A DNA stretch of 64,000 nt from contig CM000154.2 of NCBI GenBank assembly GCA_000004695.1, positions 4,608,001-4,672,000 on the forward strand, written 5' to 3'. Below are positions 7,778 through 39,415 of the stretch, in pieces. The DNA comes from Dictyostelium discoideum (lineage: Eukaryota). The translations under genes were made by a program, and so were the position numbers. Each line of letters starts with the position of its first letter. Positions within the stretch are counted from its first letter, which is position 1. The notes under the pieces are model-generated. The model did no database searches. It was not told the origin of the DNA and worked only from the letters and a program-made list of their open reading frames with translations.

Positions 7778-8308
7778 GTAATAAAAATTATAATTATTCT
7801 TTATTATTCTTTTTCTTATTGCCTCATTAAATTATTGGGTCATAGATTTTTTTTTTTTTTTTTTTTTTTTTTCTAACCTTAAAGTTATATTACTATATAA
7901 CCTTATAAGGAATTAAATTAAAATTAAAAAAAAAAAAAAAACTATTTTTTTTCTCTAAAAATATTAAAATAAAGAAATAAAAAAATCATTAGATTTCACA
8001 AAATTTAAAAGTATTTTTAGTTTTTTATTTTTTTTTTTTCTTTTCTTTGCATCCGTTTTTTTTTATTTTTTTTATTTTTTTGAATTTGGCGCCTTTTTTA
8101 GTTTATTTATTTTTTTTTTTTAAAACGAATGAAAAAACACTTTTTTTATTTATTTTTTTTTTTTTATTTTTCATAATTTTTTAAAAAATTAAAGTTAAAA
8201 AAAAAAAAAAAAAAAAAGACTTAGAAACATACACCCACCACTGCAACACATTAAAAAAAAAAAATAATAATAATAATATATATACATATATAAAATATAA
8301 TAATAAAA

Positions 8309-9140: not shown

Positions 9141-9219
<79 letters not shown>

Positions 9220-9578: not shown

Positions 9579-10084
9579 ACTTTTTTTAAATTATATTAAA
9601 ATTATTATTTTTATTTTATTTTCATTTTTTTTTTTTTTTTTTTTTTGGTAAAAAAAAAGGAAATATTTATTTTTTTTTATTTTATTTTATTTTATTTTTA
9701 ATTTTTTTGGTAAATTTAATTATTAAGAAAAACCATTTCATTTCCCTTTTTTTTTTTAATTTCTGGTAAAGGAAATTAATTAATTTTTTATTTTAAATTT
9801 AAATTTTTTTTTACCAGGCCAAGTAAAATTAATTTTTTTTAATTTTTCAAAAAAAAAAAATAAAAAAAAAAAAAAAATAAAAAAAAAAAAAAAATAAATT
9901 GCATAATTTAATTTAAAACGAAAAGGAATTTTAGTCAGATTAAAATAAAAAATCTTTTATAGATTTTCACATAATATTAAAAAAAAAAGAAAAAAAAAAA
10001 AAAAAAATAAAAACAACAACAATATTCAAATCCTCTATTAATAAATAAATAAATAAATAAATATAATAAATAATAAACATATAA

Positions 10085-11045
10085 ATGACAGCAACTAAAA
10101 CTGAAACAACTTCAACAACTTCAACAAGTTCAACAACAACAACATCATCTACAACTATTTCAGAAGTTGATGGATTAAAATTTACAATTACACCATTAAT
10201 TAAATCAACAATTTCAAATGATAATAAATTAAAAGAGAAATATTCAAAATATACAAATAACCAACAACCATTCATACCATTTAGTATATTAAAAGACATT
10301 GCAAAAACATCAACTACAAAAGTTTATTTTCAAGATTTAATTAAAGATTCTATAATTTATTATCCACCAAAAGCAGAAGTAACACCTGTATGTTTTTATT
10401 TTTCATTTCCCATTTTTTTTTTTTTTTTTAAATTTTCCACTTAAATTCTAATGATTAAATAATATAAAAAGGATCCAGAATTTATAGCAAGAAAACAACA
10501 TTTAGAGAAATTAAATAAAGAATATCAATATTCAAAATTAGTTAAAAATGTTGCTAAAAAAGAAACAGATTTAAATGAATTGTCTTCATTTAGATCACAA
10601 CTTTCAATTGCTGTAAATATATTAGTCACTTTTTTCACTCTTTTAGTTGGTGGTATTTTCGTTGGTCATAATTGGTTAAACTCTCAATTATATGTATGTA
10701 TTAACTTTTAATAACAAATAACTAAAAAATAATAATAGTGTAATAATAATAATAATACAAAAGAGACTTACTTTTTTTATTTTATTTTTTTATTTTATTT
10801 TTTTTTTTTTTTAGGGTTTAGTATGTGGTTTAGTATTAGGAATAATTGGTGTTGCTGTTGAAATTTGGTTATTTGTAATAAGATCTTCTCAAAATCAAAT
10901 GGAAAAGGATAAAGCTGAAAAAACTGAAGAAAAAATTACAGAGTGGAGAATTAGAAAGAGAACAAGAGAAATTAAAAAACAACAAAATCAATCTTTAACT
11001 GATGGCTCAAGTAGCAGCAGTAGTAGTGCTGTTAAAATTCAATAA
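10085..11045 (+). CDS. TMEM199/Vma12-like V-ATPase assembly factor (3 exons) with a Thr/Ser-rich N-terminus and two C-terminal TM helices.
   Basis: DPEFIARKQHLEKLNKEYQYSKLVKNV aligns with human TMEM199 [27 protein letters not shown]. It is followed by two hydrophobic helices (ILVTFFTLLVGGIFVG and GLVCGLVLGIIGVAVEIWLFVI). Introns lie at about 10392-10470 and 10693-10814. Confidence 0.55.
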
Positions 11046-11233
11046 ATAAAAATAATAAATAATAAATAATAAAAAAAACATCGAAAATAGAAAATGGAAA
11101 TTTTAAAAAAAAAAACAAATAATTATTATTTATTATATTTTTATTATATTTATTTATATTTATATTTAATTTATTTTTATTTATTTTGTTTTTACTATTG
11201 GTTCTATGGTTGTGAATAATTATTAAAAGTTGA

Positions 11234-12337
11234 TTATATATCATCCATTGAACTGAAAGAGGAAGAATTTGAAGAAATTAAATCGCCACTAGTTGAATTG
11301 TTTGATTCATCCAATGAGCTAATACCACTTTCATTTATACTATCATTACTTTTATCAATTGTATTACTATTTTCAGAAGTGGTTGAAGTTGTGGTTGTAT
11401 TGATAATAGTAGTTGAAACTGTAACTGTATTTGTTTGTTGATCTTGTGTATTTTCTTTGTCTTTTTCACAAATATTATCATTAACTACAACATTATTGGT
11501 ATAATTAGTGTTGGTATTATTTTTATTATTATTATTATTATTATTATTAATATTATTATTATTATTATTTCCTGTTAAATCAGAAAATGAAAGACCTTTT
11601 AAAATCATATTGCCAAAGGCTAGGACATTGCCAGAAAATGAATTACTTTGTTTGTTTGATGAACAATCTTCATCATTGACTTGTTGTTGTTTTTGATTTT
11701 GTTGTTGTTGTTCAATTTCCTTGGTTTTGTTTGAATCCTCATCTTGGTTTTCTTTTTTACGATGAAGTCCAATAAATTGTAATTGTTGATTTGGTTTAGT
11801 TTTTTCATTGTTTTCATCACCATTATCATTATTGTCACTTTTTTCATTGTCTTTTTCATTGGTTTTCCAAGTTTGATCCATTTCTTCAAAATCTCCTTTT
11901 TCAGAATCACTTTCAAAATGGTTTTCAACACTTTCATTTTCTTCATATTCATCATTTCCTTGGTTCTCTTCATCATCATAATTTTCTTCATATTCATCAT
12001 TTTCTTGATTTTCATCATTTTCTTGATTTTCATCATTTTCTTCATTTTGTACATTTTCATCATTTACTTGATCAGCACCATCTTTGTTCAATGAATTTAA
12101 ATAAGAATTTAAATTTTTTTTTGATTTTTTAAAAGATAAATTCTTTTTTTTATTTTCCAAAGTACCACTACGACTAATATAACCAGTTGTGAAACCATGT
12201 ATCAAATAAAATTTAAAATACTTTTTCTTCATTGCTTCTCTACTATATGGAGTTTTTATAAATAAAATTGGATTTGATCTTTTTACTCTTTTAATTGTAT
12301 GACGATCATCATTTAAATAACTAATTTTATTTTTCAT
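11234..12337 (-). CDS. Hypothetical acidic, Asn/Glu/Asp-rich low-complexity protein.
   Basis: Long 367-aa ORF with a non-repetitive N-terminus ([53 protein letters not shown]) followed by (NDE)n low complexity. Confidence 0.45.
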
Positions 12338-12648
12338 TTTTTATAAAATATATTATTGTTATTGTTATTATTTTTATTATTAATTAAGTGAGAGTGTTAA
12401 CATTGAATATTAAAAAAAAATAATAAAAAAAAAAAAAAAAAAAAAAAACACCTTTTATAATTTTTTTTTTTTATTATTTTTATTAAAAAAATTAATTTAA
12501 TAAAATAAAAAATAAATAAAAAATTATAAAAGGGGGAGTGTTTTTTTATTTTTATTTTTATTTTTATTTTTATTTTTATTTTTATAATTTTTTTTTTTAT
12601 TTTTTTTCTTTTTTCAAATTCTAAATTTCCAGATTGATTTAATTTAAA

Positions 12649-12875
12649 TCATTCATTTTAATTGTTTTAGGATCCATTAATGATTGAAGTTTTAATCTTA
12701 ATGCTCTTCTATATTTTGTATAAACTACTAAACTGAGAATGACAATAATTGTTGCAGAAACAACTGGAACTACAATTACAACTGGTAAAAACCAAACTCT
12801 TTCATTATCATCACTATTACCACTTTTACAATCTGATTTAAATTCTTTATTTTGAACTAAAATTGAAAAATCTAA

Positions 12876-12906
<31 letters not shown>

Positions 12907-15893
12907 AATATATAAAATAATTATAAAAAAAAAAAAAAAAAAAAAAATAATAATAATAATACTTTACCAGGATCAATTATACAATCTATGCAATGGGGTA
13001 AATTTAAACCAACAGTGATTGAACTAATATTTTTTTCAACGATTTGAGAAGTTATAAAAGTTGGACGATGATCAGATAAAGCACGATTAATGAATCTACC
13101 ATATAATACAGTACCATCCTTTGTAATGGTTACATAGTTTAATGCTGAATTTTCAGTATCAATATTTTCAATATTTGCAATATCACATTGTTGACCATTA
13201 ATTGTACCATCTTCATTTTTAGTTAAACCAACTGATGATTCCATTTGTAATTGTAATGTATTTAAACCACTAATATAGGTATAATTATTAATTTCAACTG
13301 TTAATTTAATTGAACCACTTGTTACCTTGAAAGTAATATCAGCAAATGTAAATTCTTTATCATTTTCAACTTCTTCAATTATATATGTAATATTACATTT
13401 TAATGGTACAATTTTATTAAAAATATATAAATTATTACTATTATTATTATTATTATTATTATTACTGGTAGAATTTATTTTTTTAAAATTCCAATTATTT
13501 TCAAATAAATCAATTGTATTAACTGGGTTATTATTAAAATCTAATTCTAAAAGTTTTTTAATTTTAATTGTATATTTTGTTTTATCATTATTTAAATCGG
13601 TTGAACCTGTACCTGTATCAACCGTTGTATTTGATTTTGGAGGTTGTTGAACCACTTCAATTGAACAATCTGGTCCAATGAAATTTGATTTCAAACAATT
13701 ACATTGGCCAATTCTTTGATCACAAATACCCATTGTAGAATTTGTACAATCGTTTGGACAATTTAATAGGGTATTGTTGTAGAGATAAATATTTTGACCA
13801 GCCCATGAATGACCATTTTGAATTACTGTAACTGATTTCACTCCACTACCAGGACCAATTAAACATTTTATTGATGAATATCCAATTTCATAAATTGGTG
13901 TACACTCTAAACCACCAATGAAAACTGAAGGATTAACATGGTCATCACCATACCAACCTTTTAACGTAACATTACCACCTAATATATTTGAAGCAACAAC
14001 ACTTGATACATAATGATCAGGAATTATACATTGATCACCTAACCAAAATGTAAAGCATTTACATACTTTATTTCTAATATCACAACTACCTTTATTATGA
14101 CAATTACAAATACATTCACCTGAATTTCTATCACAAAATCCTTTACCTGTACAATTTTGATTACAAGTTAAATAATAATTTGTAAAATCTGGTAAATAAG
14201 TTACATTGAATATATAATCTGGTTGACCAGTAATTTTTAAGACACTAGTTGCATCAATTTTAGTTTTGGTTATATTTGTATATGCGAAAAGTTGACAAAT
14301 TATAGTATCAAAAGTTGTAGATCTAATTTGACAATATTGATCATTCAATATTGTATATATAGTACCACTTATACTATAAGAGAATCCAGTACCTTTAATA
14401 GTTAATAAACCAACATTTGAAACATATACTGATGTTACCACTGGTCCACTTGTTGATAAGGTCATTGAAATTGAAGGATAAATGAAATTGAATGTAAATG
14501 TATTAATATCAACGGAATTTCTATAGAATTGATTACTTGGTATATCAACTATCCAATCATTTGTACTTGGTGTGGTTGTGAAATAACTTGTATCAAAACC
14601 TAAATCAGAACCATAAATAATTGTTCTATTTAAAATTGAATCAATCTTTAAATTTGCTATTAGATTTGTACAATTTTGAATGTTAATAACACCTATTGCA
14701 AGATTTAAATTTGATTTTAATATTACATTATTTTTAAAATGACATGAAAAACATGATGGTAAAATACCATTGATTAAAATTGAATTTGGTAATTTTAAAG
14801 TTTGTAAAGTACAAAATTGATTACTTATAGTTCCTTTCAATGGATTATTAGTTAATTCTAAATATCTTAAACTCTTTGGTAATGGTAATACTATATCTAA
14901 ATTATCAGGCATACCACAACTAGTAATTGAAATTGATTCAATGACAGAGTTTGCTTTATTGAAAATACCTGGAATTGGATACCCACTTTTAATTGAACAT
15001 TGGGTTATTGAAAATGATTTCAAGGATTTCATTGGTAAAGCTTTAATAGCATCAGTACTAAATAAACCAGGATTTACAATTGTAATACTTTTCAATGAAG
15101 TCATTGTTGATAAATCAATTGAACCATCAGTTGGTTTAGTAAATTGAATATTATTTAAAATTAATGTATTCAAATTTGTTAAACTTTTAATTGAATCACT
15201 TGGAAATGTATATGATAAACCACTACTACCACCATTCAATTGTAAAGTTTTAACATTTAAATAACTTGTTAAATTTGATAAATCATTTTTAACACCACTT
15301 GTAAAATACAAATTAACACTTTCAACACTATCGACATATGTTAGACTTGGTATATTCCTAGTCACACTATCAATTGATTTTATCCTACTTTTAGAACTTG
15401 TTGAACTTAAATCATTTGTATAGAAATAATATAATTCACCACTTGGTAAATTATTTAAAAGTGTGAAACTTGTCAATTCAATTAATGACGACACTGGTAT
15501 TGAAGCATTCAATGCTATTTGTAATAAATTATTTGTACTGATAGTCAATGAATCTATATTTTTAATTGGATTTGATATTGATTGTATTATACAATTATTC
15601 AATTCGAATGAATAATTTTTAAAATTATTACCTTGAAAAAAAAAATTATTATCCAATGAAAATAATGATAGATTGAAAATTAAATTCTCTTTTTGAAAAC
15701 AATTTAAATTATTACTATCAATTTTGATAACACTGGCACCATTCATTGTTAATGATGTTAATAAACCTTTATCATCACTACATTTAAAATTATTTGGATA
15801 ATCTTCACAATAATATCCCCAATTTGAATCATTTCTTAATTTAAATGTATTTGCATTTTTTGATAATACTATTAAATTATATAAACAATCAGC

Positions 15894-15941
<48 letters not shown>

Positions 15942-15957
15942 ATTTAGTTGGTTATTG

Positions 15958-15989
<32 letters not shown>

Positions 15990-16076
15990 ATAATAATATT
16001 TACTTTCAGATGGTATTAATTTTGAAATTGAATTTCCAAAAAATAAAAAGATAATTAAAATTAAAATAATATTCAT
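12649..16076 (-). CDS. Type I membrane protein with LRR-like repeats and EGF-like Cys-rich modules. Exons are 16004-16076 (signal peptide), 12968-15892 and 12649-12856 (TM plus tail).
   Basis: Signal peptide MNIILILIIFLFFGNSISKLIPSE; repeated L..L.L.N motifs; tandem EGF-like CNQNCTGKGFCDRNSGECICNCHNKGSC...CKC and CPNDCTNSTMGICDQRIGQCNCLKSNFIGPDC; the last exon encodes VWFLPVVIVVPVVSATIIVILSLVVYTKYRR. Splice phases check (GTAAAT/ATAAG, GTAAAG/TTTTAG). Confidence 0.7.
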
Positions 16077-16321
16077 GTTATTTAATCATTATATAGGAGT
16101 AAAATATCTGTTTTAAAAAAAAAAAAAAATAAAAAAATGTAAAAAAATTAAAAAATAAAAAAATAAAATTTTAAAAAAAAATAAAAATATAATGCACCAA
16201 AACATGTTAATTTTAGATATTTTTTTATTTTTATAATAATTTGGTCAATAAAAAAAAAATTTGGATATTTTTTTTTTTTTTTTTGAGATATTTTTTTTCT
16301 TTTTTTATTAATTATTATTTT

Positions 16322-17596
16322 TTATAAAAGTTTAGCAATAATAAACCAATCTAATGATGGTATTAATTTTGAATTATTATCTAAAAGTTTTGAACCAAAA
16401 TGACCTGAATAAATTGTACTATTGTATTCTTGATCAATATCTTTTAATTTTATAGGACATGATACATATCCATTTGGAATTGAATCACCATTAACTCTTG
16501 GCCATGGAAAATCCTCTTCTTCATCAAAAAATAAAAATTTTTTATCATTGTATTTACCATCATTATCGAATACACAAAAAGTAGCTAACCAACCTGTTAA
16601 AACTGATCCACCAGATCGTTGTTTATAATCAACTATTTGATTCCACCAAGTTGTATCAGGATTTCCTTTTGCAGAATCAATGAATTTATCAATCACTGCT
16701 AATAAATATTTATTTAACCATTTTTTAATTACACCATCTTTATTATCGAATTGAATTAATTTTTCAACTCTTTCTTTTAAATTTATCCAATCATTAATTT
16801 CACCTAATAATGTTACTTCTGAAAGTCCACATTTACATCCATATCTATAATCGAAATATTTCTTCATTGTTGACATTAATGCAATTGAAAATACAACTTT
16901 ATCAGATTCTGTTGTAGTTGTAAAATCTGGTATAATTAAATCTTTAATTGATGGATCTTTAATATTTGATTGAATTTGATTTGACATTTCAATTGTTAAT
17001 TTTTCAAAAGGTGCTTCTAATATTCTATATTCAGTCTCAACTATTAATTCCTTTTTACCAGTAAAATCTACAAATTTTTCACGTAATTCTTCAGAGTTTT
17101 TATTTATGTAGAACGATAATTGAGTTAATATTGCCATCCAGATATTATCTGGACGTAATACCAAATGATTGTGATTATTATAACTTTCCCAAGCAGAGTA
17201 TACAAAACTATTTAAATTAAATGATTCTAATTTTGAACCATCATCATCGCCATTGATAATACTTGTTTGTAATACTTTGTATTTTTTAGATTCTTCACCA
17301 ATTTCATTTTTAATTATTGCACTTGCTTCCATTCTTTCTTGATAATAAATTGAATGATTATTTTTAATTGAATTTAAAGGTTCATTTGTTTTTAATAATT
17401 CATTTTTTAAAAAATCATCAACATTAAATTCATATTTTAATTCCCATTTATTTTGTTCAATATCACAAACTCTAAATGAAATTGATTTATTATTTTCATC
17501 TCTTTTAATTTTGAAATTGTATTTAATTACTTTTGAATCTTTACCATCCTCATCAGCATGATGACAATTTATATTTATTTTTCTATTATTTTTCAT
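16322..17596 (-). CDS. Uncharacterised multigene-family protein, copy 1.
   Basis: 424-aa intronless ORF. The conserved core YSAWESYNNHNHLVLRPDNIWMAILTQLSFYINKNSEELREKFVDFTGKKELIVE...PSLDWFIIAKLL is shared with 36529-37722 and 38192-39415. Confidence 0.7.
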   Translation of the reverse strand: MKNNRKININCHHADEDGKDSKVIKYNFKIKRDENNKSISFRVCDIEQNKWELKYEFNVDDFLKNELLKTNEPLNSIKNNHSIYYQERMEASAIIKNEIGEESKKYKVLQTSIINGDDDGSKLESFNLNSFVYSAWESYNNHNHLVLRPDNIWMAILTQLSFYINKNSEELREKFVDFTGKKELIVETEYRILEAPFEKLTIEMSNQIQSNIKDPSIKDLIIPDFTTTTESDKVVFSIALMSTMKKYFDYRYGCKCGLSEVTLLGEINDWINLKERVEKLIQFDNKDGVIKKWLNKYLLAVIDKFIDSAKGNPDTTWWNQIVDYKQRSGGSVLTGWLATFCVFDNDGKYNDKKFLFFDEEEDFPWPRVNGDSIPNGYVSCPIKLKDIDQEYNSTIYSGHFGSKLLDNNSKLIPSLDWFIIAKLL

Positions 17597-17994
17597 TTGT
17601 GTTTGAATTTCCCAACAACAATAAAAAAAAAAAAAAAAATTTTTTTTTTTTAATAACTCAAAGAACCATTTTACCAGAAAGTGAGAAAAAAAAAAGAAAA
17701 AAAAAAAAAAAAAAAAATTTAAAATAATAAAATAAAAATAGATTTGGTTATTAAATTGTTAAAGAGGTCATATTTTCTATTGTTGATATATTATTCATGA
17801 AGATTGTAAAAAATCTTTTTTCTTTTTTTTAATATTCCATGTTTTTCTATTTAAATACTCGAAAAAAAAAAAAAAATAACCAAATGAATATGGTTCTCAT
17901 AGAGATACTAGTTCTCATTTGTTGGATATATTGTTATTATTGTTATTTTTATTTATAAAACTTTTTATTTTTTTTTTTATTTTCCCTTTTTTAA

Positions 17995-18890
17995 ATTCTC
18001 AAGTTTAGCAACAATAAACTAATCTAATGATTGTATTAATTTTGAATTATTATCTAATAGTTTTGAACCGAAATGACCTGAATAAATTGTACTATCGTAT
18101 TCATGATTTAAATCTTTTAGTAAAACTGGACATGATACGAATCCATTTGCAATTGTATCAATATTAACTCTTGGCCTTGGAAAATCCTCTTTTTGATTAC
18201 CCTTATATGACATTATATATCTATCATCATTATATTTACCATCATTATCGAATACACAAAAAGTAGCTAGCCAACCTGTTAAAACTGATCCACCAGATTG
18301 TGATTTATAATCAACGATTTGATTCCACCAAGTTGTATCAGGATTTCCATTTGCAGAATCAATGAATTTATCAATCACTGGTAATAAATAAACTAACCAT
18401 TTTTTAATTTCACCATTTTTATTATCGAACTGAATTAATTTTTCAACTCTTTCTTTTAAATTTATCTAATCATTAATTTCACTTAAAAATGTTACTTCTG
18501 AAAGTCCACATAATGATTGGAAAACAAACTTAAAATAATTTTTCATTGTTGACATTAATGCAATTGAAAATACAACTTTATCAGATTCTGTTGTAGTTGT
18601 AAAATCTGGTATAATTAAATCTTTAATTGATGGATCTTTAATATTTGATTGAATTTGATTTGACATTTCAATTGTTAATTTATCAAAAGGTGCTTTTAAT
18701 ATTGGATATCCTGTCTTAACTACTAATTTCTTTTAACCAGTAAAATCTACAAATTTTTCACGTAATTCTTCAGAGTTTTTATTTAAATAGATGAAAATTG
18801 AGTTAATATTGCCATCCAGATATTATCTGGACGTAATACTAAATGATTGTGATTATTATAACTTTCCCAATAGTTCGTTTGCATTTTGAA
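17995..18890 (-). pseudogene. Decayed copy of the same multigene family.
   Basis: High nucleotide identity to copy 1 (for example 18230-18330 versus 16560-16660), but with in-frame stops and frameshifts (tctaatcat, 'ctaatttcttttaaccag') and a truncated 5' half. Confidence 0.6.
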
Positions 18891-18899
18891 GATTTACCA

Positions 18900-19640
18900 C
18901 TTGATTTTGAAAATGTGCCACTTGATTTTGAAGATTTAACACTGATTTTGAAGACCAGGAACTTGAACTGAAAGACCTTCAGCGTGTAATCGTTAAGTTT
19001 CACATTCAACAATTATTCTTATAATACTTGGAGCAGATGGATAGTTTGGAAATCTAAAAAAAAGACCGGGGGATGGATCTTGATTTATTATATTTTGGAG
19101 AACATTAACTGGGGGAGCATTTGCATGGAAAAAATTCCATTGACCTTCTCCATAACCATGAGCAGATGTCTTTAAACCACCCTCGTTGAAACTATTTTCT
19201 GGACACCCAAATACTGAAAGGAACCACTCACCATGACCGGCAACTGGACCATCAAAACCTCTATATTACATTAAAACTTCGGCATTTGCCATTTCTGGTG
19301 GGTTTGCATTTGGAGTCCCCATCTCCTTGAGCCACCAGCTAGATCTGAGTAACCTCTGTGGTACAACCTTATCCCATCTTGATGGGATGCTTTACCGATA
19401 TATAGCAAGGTCAATACATGAGGAACCATATTCCCGAAAACAAAGTATACCCCGTTTCCCAACAAAAGCGTTTACTCCAGGACAGGCACTATTTGCGTTT
19501 CTTCTAATGAACATATTATCGTAAAACCATTGCGTGTTTGGAGTTATAGAATTGTCGTTGATAATACCAACATAGTGATGTGAGTTACAGGAGTTCACAA
19601 AAAAAAAGATCAATAAAATAATTTTAAATAAAATTTTCAT
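18900..19640 (-). pseudogene. Frameshifted remnant of a secreted-protein gene in a locally GC-richer island.
   Basis: A signal-peptide ORF (MKILFKIILLIFFFVNSCNS...) is followed by two further reading frames (…HQDGIRLYHRGYSDLAGGSRRWGLQ… and …GFDGPVAGHGEWFLSVFGCPENSFNEGGLKTSAHGYGEGQWNFFHANAPPVNVLQ…) with no AT-rich introns between them. I could not assign a family. Confidence 0.3.
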
Positions 19641-20086
19641 TTGGAGATAGTTATTTATATGAAGTATAATATAATATAAAAAAAAAAAAAAAAAAATTTA
19701 TACAAAAATAAAATTTGGATTACATAAATAAAGTTTTTTTACTAAAGGACACACTTTCAATTTGCAACAAAAGGGAATACAACAAACTAATTAAAAATAT
19801 TAAAAAATAAATTATCAACGACTACTGTATACCAAGTACAACCTTACTAAATAGAGTAATTGTTGATCAATTTATTTAAGATATAATAATCCAACATACT
19901 ATTTTATTATTGAAACATTAAAATTTTTAATCCCATAAATTTTGAAAATCTAAAAAAACAAAAACATTACTCGAAATAAAAAAATTTTCAAAAAAAGAGG
20001 GAAAAAACATTTAGGTAAAATCCTATTTATAAATAAACTTTTAATTATTGCTTATTTCTTTAAATGGATAAACACTCGTTAATCAA

Positions 20087-20137
<51 letters not shown>

Positions 20138-20183
20138 TATCTGAATTTTTAAATGATATTATTTTATTTATTGGTTTTAAATA

Positions 20184-23100
20184 TTATTCTTTTTCAATAC
20201 AAACTTTAACTTTGTATTGTATTTGATGAAGGATAGAATCAGAATAATCGATGGATCCAGATTTAACATTATAACAAATGAGGGTATTATTATATGCATA
20301 GTTAAATTCTACTTCTTTTGGATAACAGGCAAGTTTACTTGATGCAGAGTTGAATTCTGTGATAATAGTTTGATTGGTAATTACAATTGGCTCTACTTCG
20401 GATGGTGGAACTTCAAAGCATGCAGAATAATCTGAAGCTTTTACCAATGAATTCTTTGAGCATGATGAGTATTTATTGTAATTATAGCATTCTACATTAT
20501 TAATGAATGAATGTTCAGGTTCACCGCCATCACTAACACATTCAACAATGTTTGATTGGGTTTCACTATTTGAACAGAAAATAGTAGAATTATGATTGTA
20601 TGTATATTCGTTAAATCCATCTTTACAATAGATTGGACTATTTTGACCATAGATTATCATTGATTTTTCATTGGCATCATATTCACATTTTAATGAACTT
20701 GAAACTTTTGAAACCGTTGGAATAGAGAATTTATAAGATGCAGATTTTGAACGAACACCACAATTAATTTCAGTTCCAAAGTTGGTTGTATTACATTTAA
20801 TACCATTATTATTAGCATTAATTTGACAAGTGAATGATTTGTTGAAATTGAAACTTAAATTATTATTATCAATACATGTTACAGTTTCATTGAATTGATT
20901 ATCAATTGTAAAGATACGATCATTATGATTAATTGAGAAAAATACTGCAGAGTAAGGTGTTGAAGCAATTGATAAAAGATTGGATGTTGGTACTGGTGCT
21001 GTTGATGATGATAATAGGTTACCACCCATTGATGATTTTGTTACCACCATTGCTAAAGCTATAGTTGATACACGTTTAATACCATTCTTTGCAACCTGAG
21101 TTACAACTCTTCTTGTTACTGCTGCGAATCCAAATTGTAATGATTTCTCTAATGCTCCTGAAAATGATGCTGTAGATGCTAATATTGAACCAGATTTAGC
21201 TGCTGTTGCAGATGTTGCCAATGCTATTTGTGTAAGTGGTAAAGCAGTTGATGCTAATAATGCTGCTGCAACCAAAGCTGCTAATCCAATAACAATAAAA
21301 ATTACAATATTTGTTGGAGATTCTGGATCAACATAAGAAAAGTAATTATTAAGACTATTTAATTGACTTTGAACATTAACACGAATTGGTAAACCTTTTC
21401 CTTTACCTGGTGGTACAGTACATTTTACATTTTTAGAATCAACCCACTCCCAGTTGACACAAAGTACGCCATTAATAGAAACTGTACCATTTGACGAATT
21501 AACAGAGTTTTTCAATGATTTTGGAACAAAGTCATAACCTTTGATTGTAATAGTTTTACCACCTGAAGATGGTGCTGCATATTGTTTATTATCCAATGAT
21601 GGTGGATTATAAGAGAATGATCTTGTTTCATTTGATTTTTGTCCACCAACTAAAAGTACAACTGAATGGTTTTTACCAATACCTGCAACTGGATTAAATG
21701 AGAAACTTGTTGAATTAATCCATTTAATATCTTTATATTGAGTTTTACCATTGATTGTTATTGAATTTACTGAAACATTTTTGTTTTCTTCTTTATTATA
21801 AAAATCTTTTAATTCAGCGGGAACGAAATTGAAACCAACATATTTAATATCAGTGGCACCATCAGTTGATACTGTAATTTTATTTGTAATATTTGGTTTA
21901 TTATAAGAGAATAAAAGTTGATTTTCAGATTTTTGTTCACCAATAGTAATATTAACTTTTAGATTGGCACCGATACCAGGTGGAATAATACAACTAACAT
22001 TGGTTGAATTTATCCATTGAACTGATCCACATTCAAATGTACCTATATAAATTCTTGAAGTATTTCTCCAAGATGCAATTGTTTTATTTGAATCATAAAA
22101 TGGTGAAATAAATTCGAATGGATTGAAATTAAAACCTGTAATATTTAAATATTGTGGTTTTTGTGGAGGAGTTACACAATTTAATCTACTACAATTACCA
22201 CCATGAGTATCTGAACTATTGGCAGTTAAGAATTTGGAAAGCCATGGTAGAGAATATGAATATTTATAAGTATATCTGGCAGTGTTTGCAAGTGTAACTT
22301 GGATTGTTCTATTAGCACCAACATTTATTGGGAAACTACATAGGTAAAGATCGAAATCGGTTGAATAATATGCATATTGGGATTTCAAGTATGGACAAAT
22401 ATTTGAATAATCGATTTTACTATTTGCAATTACATCTGAAGTACAACGTTGAATTTCACAAAATGAGTCAGTGCCATCCACTGTTGCTTCTGGAATTTCT
22501 TCAACAATCGAACCTAAACCTCTACCAACTATCCAATATTGATTTATATTTGATGTATTCAAATGTTTATCATCGTAATATAATTTATCAATAATCATTG
22601 ATGGATATGTAAATTTAATCGATGCAGTTGAGGCATTCATACCTGTGTTTATTGCAAAAACATTTACAGTATAAAAACCTGGTGGTACAATAACCTCCAT
22701 AATCTTATCAGAGGTGAATTTTGTAATTTCTGCAATTTCTGAACCAAAATAGATATTTGTGCTTCCATTGAAAAAGTTTTGACCATTAATAGTTACTACA
22801 TCTCCAATTTTACCTGTTGTTTTTGATAAACTACTAATAATTACATTTTCAAATGTAAAGTAATTTACAACACCACTTTTAATATTCATTTTTATATTTT
22901 TAAAACAATAAAATGAAATATAACTAATTAATTTAATTAAAAAAAAAAAAAAAAAAAAAATTGTAAATATATTATGTTTTTAAAATTAAAAATTATTATT
23001 AAAAAAAAAATTAATTTATACATACTTTGAACCAGCACCAATTGCCTTAATATAAAATTGTGTATTTGTTAAAAATGTAATTGTATCTGTAACATTAGTT

Positions 23101-25774
23101 TCACCAATTTTTACAACCAAACCATATCTACTATCAGTTGCTTGTAAAAAGTTTTCACCAGTAACAGTAATTAATGAATTATATTTTGGATTTGTAGCAG
23201 AGTAAGTAATTTTAGTTACAGTTGGAATTGGGAATTTGAAGTAATATAATATATTTCTTGGATATAATGATTCGTAAATATTTTTGGAATATTCATTATA
23301 AATTTTAATTCTTTTATTTTGAAGACCGATAGTTAATGAACTTAATCTAAAGATAATTCTACATGTTCCGTTAGTGTATCTTTGGATGGAATTAAAACTA
23401 GCTTGACTTGAACCAACATATGCAAAAAGTGTATTGGTACTTGTTGGACAAAATCTGGCATTGACAGTAATCTCTTGTGATTTTACAGTAACGTCATCAA
23501 CAATTGGACCAATTGGACATGAATTAATGATTTTTCCACTTTGGAAATCTTGAATTGAAGATTCAATGAATGAACAAATCTTAAAATTTACAAAAACCAT
23601 TGATAAACCAAAAGATGAATTGGTTTTTGAAGGAGCGAAATAAGTATCAAAATTTGTATAACTTTTTCTGGTTGAATTGTTTTTCAATGCTAATTTAAAT
23701 AAATCAGAAGTAATTTGTTTTATATCGTCAAATGAATTCTTTGGTTTAACTTCTGTGGATGTATATGTACAAACATAATGACGAGTTGTTGAATCTACAT
23801 ATTTTGAAAGAATATTAATTTTTGAAACAACATTTGTAAGTTTTAAATATTCATAGAATTGACCTGATCTCCAATTTCCAATAATTGGATTATCAATCCA
23901 TCTTTTTTCAAAGAATTTAATAACTTTGGCAAATGTGGTAGTATTATATTTTATTAATTCATTTGGACAAACACCAATTGTTAAAAGAGTACTATTTAAA
24001 TCATTTTTAGTATTTAATAAATTTAAATCCTATTTTTTTTTATAAAAAAAAAAAAAAATAAAAAATAAATATTAATATGATATATATTTTTAATATTAAA
24101 ATAAAAATATTTTTTAAAAAAAAAAAAAAAACTTACATTTTGGGTAATACCAGTACAATTATAACGGCAATAATCTCTTGATGGACAATTTCTAATTGTT
24201 TCTGTAGTGAATGCATTTGCAAGTGTGGTTTCTAAAAAGGCACAAGTTTTGTTATTGATAGAGATAATAGTAAGACCTAATGCTGATGGACTTGATGGGT
24301 GTGGTGTGTGTGTAACCGTTAAACCTCTATCTACTTGTCTGTGAATTGATTGATTAGCAAACTTTCTAAGATCTATTGATTGATCTAAAATACTTGAAAA
24401 TGTTTTAAATTTGCCAGTGGAAGATATGTAGCTACAATAATTATTATTTGTTTTAGTGACAAATTTTGAAAGGATTTGTTTGGTAATTGTGGAATTGGTG
24501 AATAGGAGATTATAGAATTGGCCAGTAGTCCAATCATTTGGTATTTTGTTGTCATACCAATATTGTGAAAATAATGTTGATAATTGAATATCTGTGTAGT
24601 TTGATTGGAATTCACCACCACAAACGCCTCCTGAAAGAAGAACATGAGTGATTGAATTAAATGTATAAGCTCTTTGAGGTGTTCTACAGGTGTACTCACA
24701 TGGATTTTTAAGGGCTGGATTATTGGGGTAAATTTGTGAGAATGTTTTAGTGCATGCATGTTCTGAATACACCCCAATATAAATTTCTGCACTTGATTTT
24801 GATATACTATAAATACGGAATGGATATAAAGTATTACATCTTAATTGTAATGTAAACTTTCTATTTGTTGTGCCAGTATAAGTGTGTATTATATCTATTC
24901 CAGATGATTGATATCTAAATTGTTGAGATTCAACGCTACCATATGGAATGGTTAAATTCATACATGATTGATATGCAACACCTGAGATCATACATTGATG
25001 CGTGTTTCCACCCATATTAAAATAAATCTAAATAAATAAAAAAAATAAAAAAAAAATAAAAAAAAACGAATGGATTTAGTAAATTTTTAATTTTAGTTTT
25101 AATTTTTTTTTTTTTTTTTTTTTTTTTTATAAGATTTAACTTACTGTATCATATTCATATTTATATATGTAATTACCTGATGAAATACTTTAAAATAAAA
25201 TAATAAAAACGTTAATATTTGTTATTTTTTAAAGGGGAAAAAAAAATATAGAAATTATTTACTTACGTTTTGAGAGGTCTCAAATCAATATAGTTATCGA
25301 GTAATACGTTATGATAGAGAGCTGAAACAGTTTGTTGACAAGCATATTTGGATTGAATATTTAAATTGTATGTACACATTGGATTTTCACTGTATGATGT
25401 AACTTTATAATTTTCAGTTTTGTTGCATGTGAATGAAAGTTTGAGTGTTCTTTTATAACCTGATGAGGGACAATCACTATGAGTAGTAAGACCATATGAT
25501 TTGATTGATAAACTATTAGCTGAATATTGATAATATTGTGTTTTTCCAAGTGGATAAGTATTTCTATTGGAACTTAATATTTGACAAGCAAAATTATCAG
25601 CTCCACAAGAAATAGGTTGAATTCCGAAATTATGATAATAAGAAGAATCATAATTACCAAATGTTAGACCACGGTATTCAATTGAACCATTTCTTTTTAA
25701 AATAAATAAATAAAATTATTAATAAATAAAATTAAGTAATAAATAACTAATAATAAATAAATAACCAATAATAA

Positions 25775-25825
<51 letters not shown>

Positions 25826-27505
25826 TACATTGTTCTATTTTGTAATGGTGAAAAATCAAATACTTGACCATAAAAAGTACTACTGGAAGTAGGATTACTT
25901 CCAAAGTATTCATAATATGCTAACGGACATGCATTTTTGGATGATGCATAGATTGTTTGATTGCAAATAGAGTTATTAACAGTGGTTAAGACGGTGAATT
26001 CAGTATTGGAGCATCTAATATATACCTTTATCTCTGGTTTGGTTGTACAAATGGTAGGGGTAGATGATGAATTAAATGAAATTAAAATATTGTTTGATGT
26101 GTTACTACTTGCAATAAATGGTACTTTGGATACTGTTGGTTTATCAAAGAATGGAATAGTTGTTTTTCCAAGTCCTAAAATAAGACAACCATAATACTTT
26201 CCACTTAATCCTGAGAATTTATTACATACATCAACAGTACCACCACCGAAATTGAAAAGGAATCTATTGAGCTCTAGAGCTGACGAATATGGATTTGATG
26301 ATGATGTTCTTTAATAATTTTTTTTTTATCAGTAAAATAAAACGAATAAAAGAAAATAATAATAATAATAATAAAATACATACAATTTCAATGATCTTAA
26401 ATCATATTGATTGCCACCAAATAAGTATTTGTTTTCAATTGGACAAGCAAATTTAGTGGAGATTTGAACATCGTAGACACATGTTGAACTTTCCACAAAG
26501 CCTTTAATTGCATAGTTTTGAGTTGTATCACAAGTTAAAATAAAGTTACTTATTCTATGATAACCAGTTTGATTGGTACACTTGGTACTATCGATTTTTC
26601 CTGATTGGTATTGAATTGTTAAACCTTTATCAAAGAATTGGACATGACTGAATAGAGTAATACCAGTTGGATACCTTGTGCCATTGACTGAAACACATGA
26701 TTGAATTGGACCCTCACCAGCTGTAGCAGTACATAAAGTTGATGTTTCACAAAGACCAAAATAAAAAATGTTGCTACCATTTGTTGTAGTAAATTGTGAT
26801 GATCCTAAAACACTATTATAATGGAAATATTGAGATTAATTTAATTTAATTTTTTAAAAATTTAAAATAAATAGGTTAGATAATAAAATAATGATAAATT
26901 AAAATAAAAATAAAATAAAAGAATACATACTTTGAAGTTGGTGATAAATCGAAAAATCTATTTTTAGAATCTTGGAAAACACATCTATTTTTAGAATCTT
27001 TAGTATGTGGACTTTCCACTCTAGCATTTTGAATGAAATCATCGTAGTTTGTATCAGAGTATGTATAAACATAATTGTAAAGACTATAAAATGGAATGGT
27101 TTTTGGATTTCCAACTTCTACAGGTAATAATGATTGAATAGAATTAACTTGGTCTTCCAATACACCAATTGAAGCACGAGAGGATATATCGATTGTCTTT
27201 GATTGAGCAGAGGTTGAATTTGATTCGAGTGATGATGTTTTTGGTGCAATGAATTGACAATTACTTTCAAAGAAACACAAATAATTTGAATTTAACGATT
27301 GATAAATCATTGGTTTTTTATCATTATTGGCTGCATTTAATAACTCTATGAAATATGTTTTGAAATCATAAACATTTTCATTATTACTTAACACATCAAT
27401 TAAAAATGATACACTTGATTCTTTAAAACCTTCTAATTCATATAAATCATAAAAGAATGATGTTATTGAAGAGCTGTAATATGAGGCGTTACTTTTAGAT
27501 TTTCT

Positions 27506-27550
<45 letters not shown>

Positions 27551-28495
27551 GAGTTAGATATTTTCCTTTATTTTTTTAAAAAAAAAAAATGCAATAAAAA
27601 CCCAAAAATATCTTACATTAAATTTTTCAAATCATAAAAAACATTTGCATTCTCGTTATAAAGAAAAGACGAATTTGATTGTTGTTTTGTGTGGGAATTC
27701 TAAAAATAAAAAAAAAAAAAATAAAAAAATAAAAAAAAAAAAAAAAAAAATTGATGGTTAGAAAAAAGAAAAAAAAAAAAGAGGTTGGGAAGTTGTTACC
27801 TTTTTGATTGAGATTTGTAAAAAATTTAGAAAACCTTTTAAAAATGAAAGGGTTTGAGTTTGTTCGGGCTTGTTTTCAAAATCATTGTATCCATATAAAT
27901 TTTTTTCGTTTTCATTATATAACGATGGTTTTAAATTTTTAATTATTTGGTGAGAAATTGATTTATAAATATTTTCAAAATTACCATTACCCAGTTTAAT
28001 TGGAAGTGTGTTGATATTATTTAAAATTGCTACTGAATTATTAATTTTAACATTAATATCCCCAATAATTGATTTAAATATTGATAATGATTTAATTTGT
28101 TGTAACTCTTTATATAATATTATATAATTATTATTATTACTGTTTAAATAGTATCGTTGATTTGTTTGATTAAATAATAAATCAAAACTAATAGTTTTAT
28201 TATTTTCAATAATTGAAATATTATTAATTTTATCTTCAAAATATAATTTATTTGGCTTAAATATTGAATCATCAAAACTAATTATACTACTTCCATTAGT
28301 AGTTGTATTAATTTTAATTAAATCATTCTTATTTTCCAATGTTACTTTTGAATTTGGTAAATCATAATTATTAAAAAGTGATAAATAACTTATTAAAAAA
28401 TTATTTGGTTGGATTATTACCTTTTTATTTTCAATCGCACCAAAAATGGATTGAATGAAATAAAATGAAATAAATATTAATAAAATTTTTTTCAT
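20184..28495 (-). CDS. Large multi-exon type I membrane protein with a signal peptide, three or more MRH-like domains, IPT/TIG repeats, a TM segment and a Cys-rich C-terminal domain.
   Basis: Exon ORFs at 27758-28495 (signal peptide MKKILLIFISFYFIQSIFGA), 26940-27394, 26386-26828, 25826-26300, 25271-25700, 24135-25015, 23027-24030 and 20184-22875, linked by GTAAGT/GTATGT donors and AG acceptors with consistent phases. MRH signature C.Y.(L/V).I.(S/T)..AC occurs at CTYNLNIQSKYAC and CVYDVQISTKFAC. IPT-like segments ITVTGENF and NITGFNF are present. The hydrophobic segment is IVIFIVIGLAALVAAALLAS. Confidence 0.6.
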
Positions 28496-28526
28496 TTTTA
28501 TTTGTTTTTGATATCTTACTTTTTAT

Positions 28527-28539
<13 letters not shown>

Positions 28540-28606
<67 letters not shown>

Positions 28607-29081
28607 AATAAAATAAAATAAAATTAAATAAAATAAAATGTTCAAAATTTTTTAGAATAAATCATGATTGGTTTGGTATTTTTAGCATCAAAAGATATTT
28701 CAAAGAAAAAAAAAAATAAAAAAAATGAATTGATATACACCAAGATTTTGCTCGTTTTTTTTTAAAAATTTTGAAACGATATACACTAAAATATTGAACA
28801 TTCAAGAAAAAAAATTATTTTAAATAATTTTAAATAAATAAAAAAAAACAATCAATATTTTAATGTTTACTATGAAGCATTAAAAAAACGCCATCAATAT
28901 TTTAGTGTATATTGTTTAAAATTTTTTAAAAAAAAACGAGCAAAATCTTGTTTTAAATCAATTTTTTTTATTTTTTTTTTTTCTTTGAAATATCTTTTGA
29001 TGCTAAAAATACCAAACCAATCATGATTTATTCTAAAAAATTTTGAACATTTTATTTTATTTAATTTTATTTTATTTTATT

Positions 29082-29131
<50 letters not shown>
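28540..29131. repeat. Near-perfect palindrome (foldback) of about 590 bp in the divergent intergenic region.
   Basis: 28605-28707 is the exact reverse complement of 28982-29084 (103/103). The inner arms at 28708-28830 and 28861-28980 are imperfectly complementary around a loop near 28845. The flanks are poly(A) at 28540-28604 and poly(T) at 29085-29131. Confidence 0.85.
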
Positions 29132-29142
<11 letters not shown>

Positions 29143-29183
29143 GCAAGAAACGATTAATTAAATAATTAAATAAATATTAAAGA

Positions 29184-31849
<2,666 letters not shown>

Positions 31850-32150
31850 AAAATTAATAATCAAAAAAAAAAACACTGTTTTTAAAAAAAAAAATAATAA
31901 AAAAAAAAATCTAAAAAATTATTGTGCGTTTTTAGCAAATTAATCATAAAAAAAAAAATTAAAAAAATTCACCCAAGTCGAACAAAAAAAAAATAAAAAA
32001 AATGAAAAAAGGGTTTAAAATATTGAAAAACTTTCTAAGTTAATTATTATGAATATTTATTTGTTTTTAATTTTAAAAAATTTAAAACTACACAATAAAA
32101 ATTTTTATACTAAAATTTCTTTGAAAATAAAAAAAAATTTATTTATTTTA

Positions 32151-36528: not shown

Positions 36529-37722
36529 TCATAAAAGTTTAGCAATAATAAACCAATCTAATGATGGTATTAATTTTGAATTATTATCTAAAAGTTTTGA
36601 ACCGAAATGACCTGAATAAATTATACTATTATATTCTTGATCTAAATCTTTGAGTAAAACTGGACATGATACAAATCCATTTGGAATTGAATCAGCATTA
36701 ACTCTTGGCCATGGAAAATCCTCTTCTTCCTCAAAAGAATATGATTCTGTATATTCATCATCATTATATTTACCATCATTATCGAATACACAAAAAGTAG
36801 CTAACCAGCCTGTTAAAACATTGCCACCAGATTGTTCTCTATAATCTACTATCTGATTCCACCAAGTTGTATCAGGATTCCCATTTACAGAATCAATGAA
36901 TTTATCAATCACTGGTAATAAATAAACTAACCATTTTTTAATTTCACCATTTTTATTATCGAATTGAATTAATTTTTCAACTCTTTCTTTTAAATTTATC
37001 CAATCATTAATTTCACCTAATAATGTTACTTCTGAAAGGCCACAATATGTTTTAAAAACAAAATTAAAATATTTCTTCATTGTTGACATTAATGCAATTG
37101 AAAATACAACTTTATCAGATTCTGTCGTAGTTGTAAAATCTGGTATAATTAAATCTTTAATTGATGGATCTTTAATATTTGATTGAATTTGATTTGACAT
37201 TTCAATGGTTAATTTATCAAAAGGTGCTTCTAATATTGGATATACTGTCTCAACTATTAATTCTTTTTTACCAGTAAAATCTACAAATTTTTCACGTAAT
37301 TCTTCAGAGTTTTTATTTACGTAGAATGATAGTTGAGTTAATATTGCCATCCAGATATTATCAGGACGTAGTACTAAATGATTGTGATTATTATAACTTT
37401 CCCAAGCAGAGTATACGAAACTATTTGAACCAAAACATGCTAAATCATCATTAATAATACTTGTTTGCAATACTTTAACTCCTATATCAATTCCATTTTT
37501 TAATGATGGATCCATTGTTTTAAAAGATTCAGCATTTAAAAAATCATTAACTTTAAATTTACCATTAATTTCCCATTTATTTTGCTCAATATTACAAACT
37601 TTAAATGAAATTGATTTATTAATTTCATCTCTTTTAATTTTAGAATTGTATTTAATTACTTTTGAATCATTGTTAACAAAACCACTATGACTTCTTACTC
37701 TATAATTAAAAATAGTATTCAT
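36529..37722 (-). CDS. Uncharacterised multigene-family protein, copy 2.
   Basis: 397-aa intronless ORF sharing the conserved core with 16322-17596. Confidence 0.7.
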   Translation of the reverse strand: MNTIFNYRVRSHSGFVNNDSKVIKYNSKIKRDEINKSISFKVCNIEQNKWEINGKFKVNDFLNAESFKTMDPSLKNGIDIGVKVLQTSIINDDLACFGSNSFVYSAWESYNNHNHLVLRPDNIWMAILTQLSFYVNKNSEELREKFVDFTGKKELIVETVYPILEAPFDKLTIEMSNQIQSNIKDPSIKDLIIPDFTTTTESDKVVFSIALMSTMKKYFNFVFKTYCGLSEVTLLGEINDWINLKERVEKLIQFDNKNGEIKKWLVYLLPVIDKFIDSVNGNPDTTWWNQIVDYREQSGGNVLTGWLATFCVFDNDGKYNDDEYTESYSFEEEEDFPWPRVNADSIPNGFVSCPVLLKDLDQEYNSIIYSGHFGSKLLDNNSKLIPSLDWFIIAKLL

Positions 37723-38191: not shown

Positions 38192-39415
38192 TTATAAAAG
38201 TTTGGCAATAATAAACCAATCTAATGAAGGTATTAATTTTGAATTATTATCTAAAAGTTTTGAACCGAAATGACCTGAATAAATTGTACTATTATATTGA
38301 ATTTCACCTTGAATTAATTTGATTGGAGCTGATATAAAACCATTTGGAATTGAATCACCATTAACTCTAGGCCATTTATATTTTTTATCTTTATTACTCC
38401 ACCATAATATTAAATTATCATTGTATTTACCATCGATATCGAACACGCAAAAAGTAGCTAACCAACCTGTTAAAATCGATCCACCAGATGATGATTTATA
38501 ATCAACCATCTGATTCCACCAAGTTGTATCAGGATTCCCATTTACAGAATCAATGAATTTATCAATCACTGGTAATAAATAAACTAACCATTTTTTAATT
38601 TCACAATCTTTATTATCGAATTGAATTAATTTTTCAACTCTTTCTTTTAAATTTATCCAATCATTAATTTCACCTAATAATGTTACTTCTGGAAGACCAC
38701 AAGATGACATGCATTGATAATCGAAATATTTCTTCATTGTTGACATTAACGCAATTGAAAATACAACTTTATCAGATTCTGTTGTAGTTGTAAAATCTGG
38801 TATAATTAAATCTTTAATTGATGGATCTTTAATATTTGATTGAATTCGATTTGACATTTCAATTACAACTTCATCAAAAGGTGCTTCTAATATCGGATAA
38901 TCAGTCTCAACTATTAATTCTTTTTTACCAGTAAAATCTACAAATTTTTCACGTAATTCTTCAGAGTTTTTATTTATGTAGAATGATAGTTGAGTTAATA
39001 TTGCCATCCAGATATTATCAGGACGTAATACTAAATGATTATGATTATTATAACTTTCCCAAGCAGAGTATATAAAACTATTTGAACCACAACCAATATT
39101 TATTAAATCATCACCATCACCATCTGTAATACTTGTTTTTAAAACTTTATATTGTTCAGCATCATCACCTGTTTTTTCATTTTCCAAGTTTATAAATTCT
39201 TCAATACAAAATTTATCTTTTATTCCCCATGGACTTTTTTCAACTTCACAAACTTTAAATGTAATTGATTTATTATTTTCATCTCTTTTAATTGTTGAAT
39301 CATATTCAATTAATTTATATTTTGAATTATAAAATTCATTATCTTGATCATTTTCTTTGTTTTCATTATTTTTTTTTAATTTTTTGCTTGAAAACTTGGA
39401 AAATAATTTTTTCAT
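38192..39415 (-). CDS. Uncharacterised multigene-family protein, copy 3.
   Basis: 407-aa intronless ORF with the same conserved core and a divergent N-terminus. Confidence 0.7.
   Translation of the reverse strand: MKKLFSKFSSKKLKKNNENKENDQDNEFYNSKYKLIEYDSTIKRDENNKSITFKVCEVEKSPWGIKDKFCIEEFINLENEKTGDDAEQYKVLKTSITDGDGDDLINIGCGSNSFIYSAWESYNNHNHLVLRPDNIWMAILTQLSFYINKNSEELREKFVDFTGKKELIVETDYPILEAPFDEVVIEMSNRIQSNIKDPSIKDLIIPDFTTTTESDKVVFSIALMSTMKKYFDYQCMSSCGLPEVTLLGEINDWINLKERVEKLIQFDNKDCEIKKWLVYLLPVIDKFIDSVNGNPDTTWWNQMVDYKSSSGGSILTGWLATFCVFDIDGKYNDNLILWWSNKDKKYKWPRVNGDSIPNGFISAPIKLIQGEIQYNSTIYSGHFGSKLLDNNSKLIPSLDWFIIAKLL

Follow-up and report, generated by a model that had tools for sequence, protein, structure and literature searches.

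A 64,000-nucleotide stretch of Dictyostelium discoideum DNA (here called the window; NCBI GenBank assembly GCA_000004695.1, contig CM000154.2, positions 4,608,001 to 4,672,000 of the forward strand) carries on its minus strand, at window positions 28495-20184, a gene for a large protein that combines MRH domains with IPT/TIG repeats. We propose, with moderate confidence, that this protein is a membrane-anchored receptor for mannose glycans that works at the cell surface or in the endocytic pathway and is a member of an MRH-TIG family confined to Dictyostelium. An initial annotation, made from the sequence without database searches, had described a type I membrane protein in which several MRH domains precede a set of IPT/TIG repeats, and both profile searches and a fold match support that description. 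Its suggestion of a candidate glycan receptor is also reasonable, because one of the domains has the full Gln/Arg/Glu/Tyr tetrad of a mannose-binding site.

By homology, the protein carries four tandem MRH domains, the module that has the P-type lectin fold. Coordinates for parts of the gene refer to the minus strand of the window throughout. Domain A (26989-26443, residues 432-574) spans intron 3 and has 8 Cys; the degenerate domain B (26442-25927, residues 575-721) spans intron 4 and has 6 Cys; domain C (25926-25338, residues 722-872) spans intron 5 and has 6 Cys; and domain D (25337-24752, residues 873-1002) spans introns 6 and 7 together with the 43-nucleotide exon 7 and has 4 Cys. The four-MRH region thus holds 24 Cys, domain A has all of the framework cysteines, and the disulfide pairing is putative. 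Both of the exact matches to the C-terminal signature C-x-Y-x-(L/V)-x-I-x-(S/T)-x-x-A-C that the initial annotation had pointed out are present, namely, CVYDVQISTKFAC at the end of domain A (26443-26481, residues 562-574) and CTYNLNIQSKYAC at the end of domain C (25338-25376, residues 860-872). The six-frame translation of the window contains no further occurrence, and no match arose by chance in 200 shuffles of the window or 20,000 shuffles of the protein. The weaker third match noted at the same time, CNQTIYASSKNAC (residues 709-721), lies in domain B, and the fourth unit, domain D, is more degenerate and ends in YSEHAC. Moreover, a phase-2 intron interrupts all four units at the identical point, right after a DLxxL motif, and this shared position shows that the units arose by tandem duplication of an exon-defined unit.

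Profile searches provide further evidence for the homology. A profile of the orthologs' 582-residue four-MRH repeat region was scored against 1.84 billion representative proteins and matched only 22 of them. Two groups among these matches are informative: Dictyostelium paralogs that have tandem MRH domains followed by TIG arrays, and proteins with Pfam CIMR, Man-6-P_recep, ATG27, or PRKCSH_1 domains. The remainder comprises the query's own ortholog, uninformative fragments (P0008 and P0009), and a MACPF protein (P0018). In that library, the proteins positive for CIMR, PRKCSH_1, and Man-6-P_recep were reached at E values of 3e-9 to 9e-4. A second profile, for which only the A and C domains of the seven orthologs and the window protein were used, matched CI-MPR, the cation-independent receptor for mannose 6-phosphate (Man-6-P), at E 3e-15, with the best scores on its domains 3, 5, and 9; CI-MPR has four carbohydrate-binding repeats, and these are three of them (PMC7481795). 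Against the whole PDB, a profile of domain C only matched CI-MPR and nothing else (E 0.002 to 0.006, best on domains 5 and 3), while the whole four-domain profile gave a marginal match to CI-MPR domain 5 (E 0.026). Domains B and D were compared by hhalign with A4, a 53-sequence MRH profile, and matched it along their entire length with probabilities of 98.8% (E 5e-17 over 131 columns) and 99.1% (E 5e-19), respectively.

Structural modeling also supports an MRH fold for domain C, a flattened beta-barrel of about 150 residues. The AlphaFold2 model of this domain, made from the homolog P0001, has a mean predicted local distance difference test score (pLDDT) of 79.4 and 11 strands. In a Foldseek search of the PDB, its top 44 matches (E of 1e-3 or less) were all MRH-containing structures. 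The best of these was CD-MPR (E 1.8e-8, TM score 0.66 to 0.70), and the others included CI-MPR repeats, Yos9, OS-9, and Elapor1, with GNPTG, XTP3-B, and glucosidase II beta just below the threshold. A comparison of a model with CI-MPR domains had been suggested in the initial annotation, and its outcome agrees with the MRH assignment made there. A model of the whole 582-residue MRH region, built from seven sequences, was discarded at a pLDDT of 44.7; because it was so poor, the folds of domains A, B, and D are assigned from sequence alone.

In every characterized MRH lectin, including CI-MPR, CD-MPR, OS-9, and glucosidase II beta, a tetrad of Gln, Arg, Glu, and Tyr holds the mannose ring. Domain C has the complete tetrad, consisting of Gln791 (25581-25583), Arg835 (25449-25451), Glu856 (25386-25388), and Tyr862 (25368-25370), and these residues are invariant in all eight orthologs, down to 66% overall identity. 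The third MRH domain of the paralogs has the full tetrad as well. In alignments, the ACQ of domain C has its counterpart in an ACQ in both domain 3 and domain 5 of CI-MPR, Arg835 falls on Arg391 of CI-MPR domain 3, and the spacing Glu-x3-Cys-x-Tyr is that of ERLEC1. Domain A reads Val491/Arg537/Glu558/Tyr564, with Val or Ile at the Gln position in all orthologs. No residue of the tetrad is present in domain B, and domain D keeps the Arg alone, having lost the Gln, the Glu, and the Cys-x-Tyr motif.

Searches for relatives place the gene in a small family. In a search of 5.8 billion proteins, seven full-length relatives were found, all from Dictyostelium and all at 100% query coverage. These collinear relatives (P0001 to P0007) are single annotated proteins of 2,441 to 2,469 residues: DDB_G0291065 of strain AX4 (92% identity), a homolog from a D. 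discoideum isolate (94%), two D. cf. discoideum copies, and one protein each from D. citrinum, D. dimigraforme, and, at 66% identity, D. firmibasis. From this comparison, the window gene is identified as the ortholog of the uncharacterized D. discoideum gene DDB_G0291065, and its product would be a type I membrane glycoprotein of about 2,450 residues. The paralogs, which are likewise uncharacterized, include ACTFIZ_008384 from D. cf. discoideum (3,198 residues), RB653_006925 from D. firmibasis (2,117 residues), ACTFIT_007972 from D. discoideum (1,321 residues), and DICPUDRAFT_77883 from D. purpureum (1,446 residues). Like the window protein, they carry tandem MRH domains and, after these, its module of about 190 residues and TIG arrays, but they lack its N-terminal region and its cytosolic tail. 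The MRH units detected numbered four in P0010, four in P0011, and three in P0013, and P0014 had five matched stretches. MRH units of these Dictyostelium paralogs pass the Pfam PRKCSH_1 cutoff. Judged by these relatives, the window protein belongs to a small MRH-TIG family restricted to Dictyostelium. Dictyostelids also encode secreted proteins with two or four MRH domains, a MACPF-MRH protein, and other MRH genes.

Copy number differs among these genomes. A search within the window for a second MRH-TIG copy found none, so that it holds a single copy only. The corresponding locus of the D. discoideum isolate GCA_054859385 (L001) has two copies, at 1-6778 and 9879-18513, in the order copy, two DNase II genes, copy. 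The D. firmibasis locus (L002) also has two, at 628-9434 and 10001-18263, in the order DNase II, copy, copy, and the two D. cf. discoideum copies are ACTFIZ_012026 and ACTFIZ_012028.

We propose the following scheme for a lectin receptor. Domain C would recognize a terminal mannose on a high-mannose N-glycan that may carry a modification, while domain A, with its Val-Arg-Glu-Tyr, might bind more weakly or with a different specificity, and domains B and D could serve as structural spacers or protein-binding surfaces. The two family-specific modules and the TIG stalk would keep the lectin head clear of the membrane, and the strongly conserved 350-residue cytosolic domain may couple ligand binding to trafficking or signaling. 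TIG stalks are typical of cell-surface receptors. An extracellular role is favored because of this stalk, because secreted proteins with two or four MRH domains, and also a MACPF-MRH protein, occur in dictyostelids, and because the sorting signals of MPR-type receptors are missing.

Several observations weigh against this scheme. Pfam searches of the window protein, whole and in seven pieces, gave no MRH family above threshold and TIG only; the best hint below threshold was an ATG27 match of the third unit, which scored 20.1 bits where the cutoff is 27. The initial annotation had named the lack of an MRH profile hit as evidence that would speak against it, and this is literally the Pfam result on the protein, which the family profiles described above overturn. 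Also, the target modeled for domain C was the closest homolog, P0001 (95% identical there), rather than the window sequence, and the alignment behind the model included canonical MRH domains. The full tetrad occurs in just one of the four MRH domains, and mannose binding by domain C is predicted from the conserved tetrad by analogy; the ligand of this domain, any modification of that ligand, and the cellular site are inferred in turn. The ratio of nonsynonymous to synonymous substitution rates (dN/dS) of domain C relative to the closest homolog is 0.87, a value based on only 3 synonymous and 10 nonsynonymous differences. Finally, no mention of DDB_G0291065 was found in the searchable literature; the Dictyostelium MRH protein that is discussed there is a different gene, DDB_G0283243.

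MRH domains can also work as protein-binding modules, for which CI-MPR domain 11, which binds IGF2, and Drosophila LERP are models. The window protein might accordingly be an adhesion or recognition receptor in which MRH domains bind proteins or are purely structural and sugar binding is irrelevant, a reading that we regard as unlikely. It gains from the three MRH domains that lack the full tetrad, from the TIG stalk, from the difference in copy number (one in the window and two each in L001 and L002), and from the existence of MRH receptors without sugar-binding residues (PMC8717582). It also gains from domain D, the most variable part of the protein, which is 48 to 88% identical to its homologs with dN/dS of 0.66 to 0.75; identity to proteins labeled D. 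discoideum falls there to 67 to 88%, against 92 to 94% overall. This variability fits either relaxed constraint or diversification, with dN/dS not above 1. Nevertheless, a tetrad in domain C that stays invariant down to 66% identity and recurs in the paralogs is hard to explain without sugar binding. Moreover, no segment of the gene has a dN/dS above 1, and the flanking DNase II region (85.8% identical to L001) is more diverged than the gene (93.0%), with no hint of gene-specific hypervariability. The overall identity of 92 to 94% and the drop in domain D had prompted the idea of an allorecognition-like hypervariable gene, which was not retained because of these last two findings.

The initial annotation had compared the protein with lysosomal-enzyme receptors of the CI-MPR type. 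On that reading, the protein would be the Dictyostelium counterpart of CI-MPR, which would read methylated Man-6-P (Man-6-P-OCH3) on lysosomal hydrolases and sort or recapture them; we consider this distinctly improbable. The multi-MRH type I membrane architecture is what one would expect of such a receptor, and CI-MPR domains 5 and 3 are the best PDB matches of domain C. An SSGYKR motif in domain C is matched in the alignment by SSGFQR in CI-MPR domain 3, where the phosphate-contacting Ser386 lies, and this too hints at a counterpart; however, the Ser at the aligned position is not conserved, with Ala taking its place in the D. dimigraforme protein and Thr in that of D. firmibasis. The targeting of lysosomal enzymes in Dictyostelium was reported to be independent of the modifications that its glycans carry, which counts against the idea. 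Those modifications, on N-glycans, are methylphosphate on terminal mannose and also sulfate on mannose (PMC11795075), and the methylphosphomannose, which is abundant on the glycans, would be a suitable ligand. Two literature reports are in keeping with this: CI-MPR domain 5 prefers phosphodiesters, according to a study cited in PMC7481795 (its reference 30), and Dictyostelium is described, in PMC2114169, as being without Man-6-P receptors detectable by biochemical means.

The cytosolic tail provides one point for such a counterpart and two against it. It has a single conserved YxxPhi motif (YSAV or YSGV), about 97 residues past the membrane and inside an apparently folded domain. DxxLL motifs and acidic clusters are missing from the tail, as is any [DE]xxxL[LI] conserved across the orthologs. 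As a conserved, Cys-rich domain of 350 residues, the tail also differs from those of MPRs, LERP, and TvMPR, which are short sorting tails (PMC8717582). The family is also found only in Dictyostelium and has a TIG stalk, and the same genomes encode other MRH proteins, so this protein is not the sole candidate for a reader of mannose glycans. The divergent neighbor that the initial annotation had called a DNase II gene (29184-30554, plus strand) does match PF03265 (E 1e-26, residues 44-216), and the two genes are also adjacent in L001 and L002. Because these loci come from close relatives, we take the adjacency to be conserved synteny rather than shared function, and it lends no support to the receptor context that the annotation had read into the pairing. 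Taken together, the single complete tetrad among four domains, the missing MPR sorting motifs, the restriction to Dictyostelium, and the TIG stalk speak against the CI-MPR-like receptor proposed there. A role as a lysosomal-enzyme receptor has a low probability and gains no specific support here.

A narrower version concerns the ligand alone. Domain C, possibly together with domain A, might be a P-type lectin site for the methylphosphomannose diester, with the MRH-TIG proteins as its readers, an idea that we offer as a speculation with little probability behind it. If it were true, such readers might capture secreted hydrolases or recognize self glycoproteins at the cell surface, and phosphomannosyl recognition would extend beyond animals, with a different receptor architecture.

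Comparison with known receptors shows where the window protein departs from them. Like CI-MPR-type multi-MRH receptors, it is a predicted type I membrane protein whose tandem MRH domains measure about 150 residues each, show a conserved Cys pattern, and keep the sugar site in some repeats only. Yet it has 4 MRH domains, compared with their 15 or 5, and they lack its N-terminal region, its two modules, its TIG stalk, and its long Cys-rich tail. Among PDB sequences, CI-MPR is matched best, through its domains 3, 5, and 9, but neither CI-MPR nor LERP qualifies as an ortholog: full-length relatives come from Dictyostelium only, and similarity to CI-MPR, at about 20 to 25% identity, is confined to single domains. 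CD-MPR, OS-9/Yos9, XTP3-B/ERLEC1, glucosidase II beta, and GNPTG are soluble or short-tailed proteins of the endoplasmic reticulum or Golgi apparatus. The domain C model shares their fold, whereas the window protein differs from such proteins, which have one or two MRH domains, in its very large size, its TIG stalk, and its transmembrane anchor. Receptors with IPT/TIG domains (e.g., Dictyostelium Tgr proteins, plexins, and Met) resemble it in having a TIG array that adjoins a single transmembrane helix; to our knowledge, they have no MRH domains.

With its MRH head, TIG stalk, transmembrane helix, and large conserved tail, this protein belongs to a known kind of receptor but is a lineage-specific variant, one that puts the MRH module in a new setting. 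The MRH content of the AX4 ortholog had already been flagged by automatic annotation (its UniRef name is MRH domain-containing protein). The combination is not by itself a surprising discovery. The value lies in the fact that this gene and its few paralogs are defined, testable candidates for readers of the modified mannose glycans of Dictyostelium, and four residues in the third MRH domain offer a handle on glycan recognition. If the lectin prediction fails, the protein becomes one more lineage-specific Dictyostelium surface protein.

These interpretations presuppose that the interval 28495-20184 is one intact, functional gene, and its sequence indicates that it is. The coding region runs through 10 exons from an ATG at 28495 to a stop codon at 20184-20186 in a single open frame and encodes 2,454 residues; these limits match exactly the coordinates given in the initial annotation. 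The exons lie at 28495-27800, 27699-27617, 27503-26931, 26812-26384, 26308-25829, 25692-25267, 25187-25145, 25027-24137, 24029-23026, and 22923-20184, and all nine introns have GT..AG boundaries. That annotation had counted about nine exons in a single gene; the single gene stands, as evidenced by the open frame, the collinear homologs, and dN/dS, and the exon count becomes ten. We adopted 22923 as the acceptor of exon 10 rather than 22875, an in-frame AG 48 nucleotides away, because all annotated homologs use the upstream site and the 16 additional codons are kept in frame across species, out to D. firmibasis. The gene DNA is 93.0% identical to the genomic copy in the isolate GCA_054859385, with an overall dS of 0.09, a dN/dS of 0.27, and values below 1 in each segment. 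One open frame, collinear orthologs, and purifying selection in all segments together mark this as a live, constrained gene rather than a pseudogene or a set of open reading frames chained by chance. The choice between two in-frame acceptors in exon 10 leaves a small opening for the view that several adjacent genes, or a decaying pseudogene, only appear to form joined exons. We find that view hardly credible in light of the canonical splice sites, the one 2,454-codon frame, the collinear single gene model in seven genomes, the purifying selection on every part, and the paralogs with the same domain order.

The MRH domains are preceded by a putative signal peptide, MKKILLIFISFYFIQSIFGA (28495-28436, residues 1-20), which forms the N-terminal hydropathy peak and whose cleavage site is inferred. 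An Asn-rich N-terminal region with 2 Cys follows (28435-26990, residues 21-431, spanning introns 1 and 2). It has no Pfam domain and no match in the paralogs, being confined to the ortholog group, and its dN/dS is 0.23. Downstream of domain D are the two family-specific modules of about 190 residues (24751-23241, residues 1003-1210 and 1211-1470, spanning intron 8), which are 31% identical to each other (E 2e-18). The module is repeated also in the paralogs P0010, P0011, P0014, and P0029, and it has no Pfam match and no sequence relative in the PDB.

The IPT/TIG repeats, the hydrophobic span, and the Cys-rich tail that the initial annotation had listed were all recovered. The IPT/TIG array (23240-21321, residues 1471-2076, spanning intron 9) matches PF01833 in five stretches (E 2e-27) and is common to the window protein and the paralogs. 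Its last PF01833 stretch (model-A residues 1973-2056) lies about 8 residues ahead of the predicted transmembrane helix. That helix (21311-21237, residues 2080-2104), found by Kyte-Doolittle analysis, is the only internal 19-residue window with a hydropathy above 1.6, and it peaks at 3.1. Because acidic residues precede the helix and Lys/Arg residues follow it, a type I topology is predicted, with a signal peptide and one membrane-spanning segment.

The C-terminal tail (21236-20187, residues 2105-2454) is predicted to be cytosolic and consists of an Ala/Ser-rich segment and then a domain of about 250 residues, with 14 Cys in the 350 residues. The constraint on it exceeds that on any other part of the protein; its dN/dS is 0.08 at a normal dS of 0.074, and its identity to homologs of the D. 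discoideum group is 98 to 100%. No Pfam match and no PDB relative were found for it, and outside the orthologs the homolog search matched it only in a D. dimigraforme paralog and two pseudogene-like fragments. The short annotated proteins P0038 (ACTFIT_008347) and P0039 (DDB_G0268484), from elsewhere in D. discoideum genomes, are 76 to 93% identical to parts of the tail and run out into frameshifted sequence. They have the look of pseudogene fragments derived from the MRH-TIG gene.

The surroundings of the gene hold several further features. In the 456-residue open reading frame (ORF) at 29184-30554 (plus strand), the match to the DNase II profile is limited to the N-terminal half of that profile, and the middle is hydrophobic and resembles an intron; the ORF after it (30783-31640, plus strand) has no Pfam match, and two DNase II genes are annotated at this place in L001. 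A comparison of exon 10 with a phage collection gave no match. The window is AT-rich, and a GC profile computed over 17000-32000 ranges from about 0.13 to 0.41. Just downstream of the gene, the stretch 19000-19640 (minus strand) stands out with a GC content of 41%, compared with about 25% around it, and contains an ORF with a signal peptide and two in-frame stops. It has no Pfam match, no Rfam match, and no tRNA; possible explanations are a pseudogene, a gene whose introns are short, and an insert of foreign DNA.

Four DUF4419 ORFs flank the MRH-TIG gene on both sides (16322-17596, 18019-18378, 36529-37722, and 38192-39415, all on the minus strand), three of them full length and one a fragment or exon. 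Two genes with ComC supersandwich domains lie at 12921-15746 (minus strand) and 56736-59213 (plus strand); one adds an EGF-like domain, and the other adds DUF7034, DUF7035, and DUF7949. Finally, a 2,813-residue ORF at 44972-53413 (plus strand) encodes, by Pfam, a type I polyketide synthase (PKS)/fatty acid synthase (ketosynthase, acyltransferase, dehydratase, enoylreductase, ketoreductase, and acyl carrier protein domains) with a C-terminal type III PKS of the chalcone synthase type, that is, a Steely-type hybrid. A flavin-dependent halogenase, also recognized by Pfam, is encoded near it at 39665-41476 (minus strand), and the two look like stlB and chlA, the D. discoideum pair responsible for making DIF-1.

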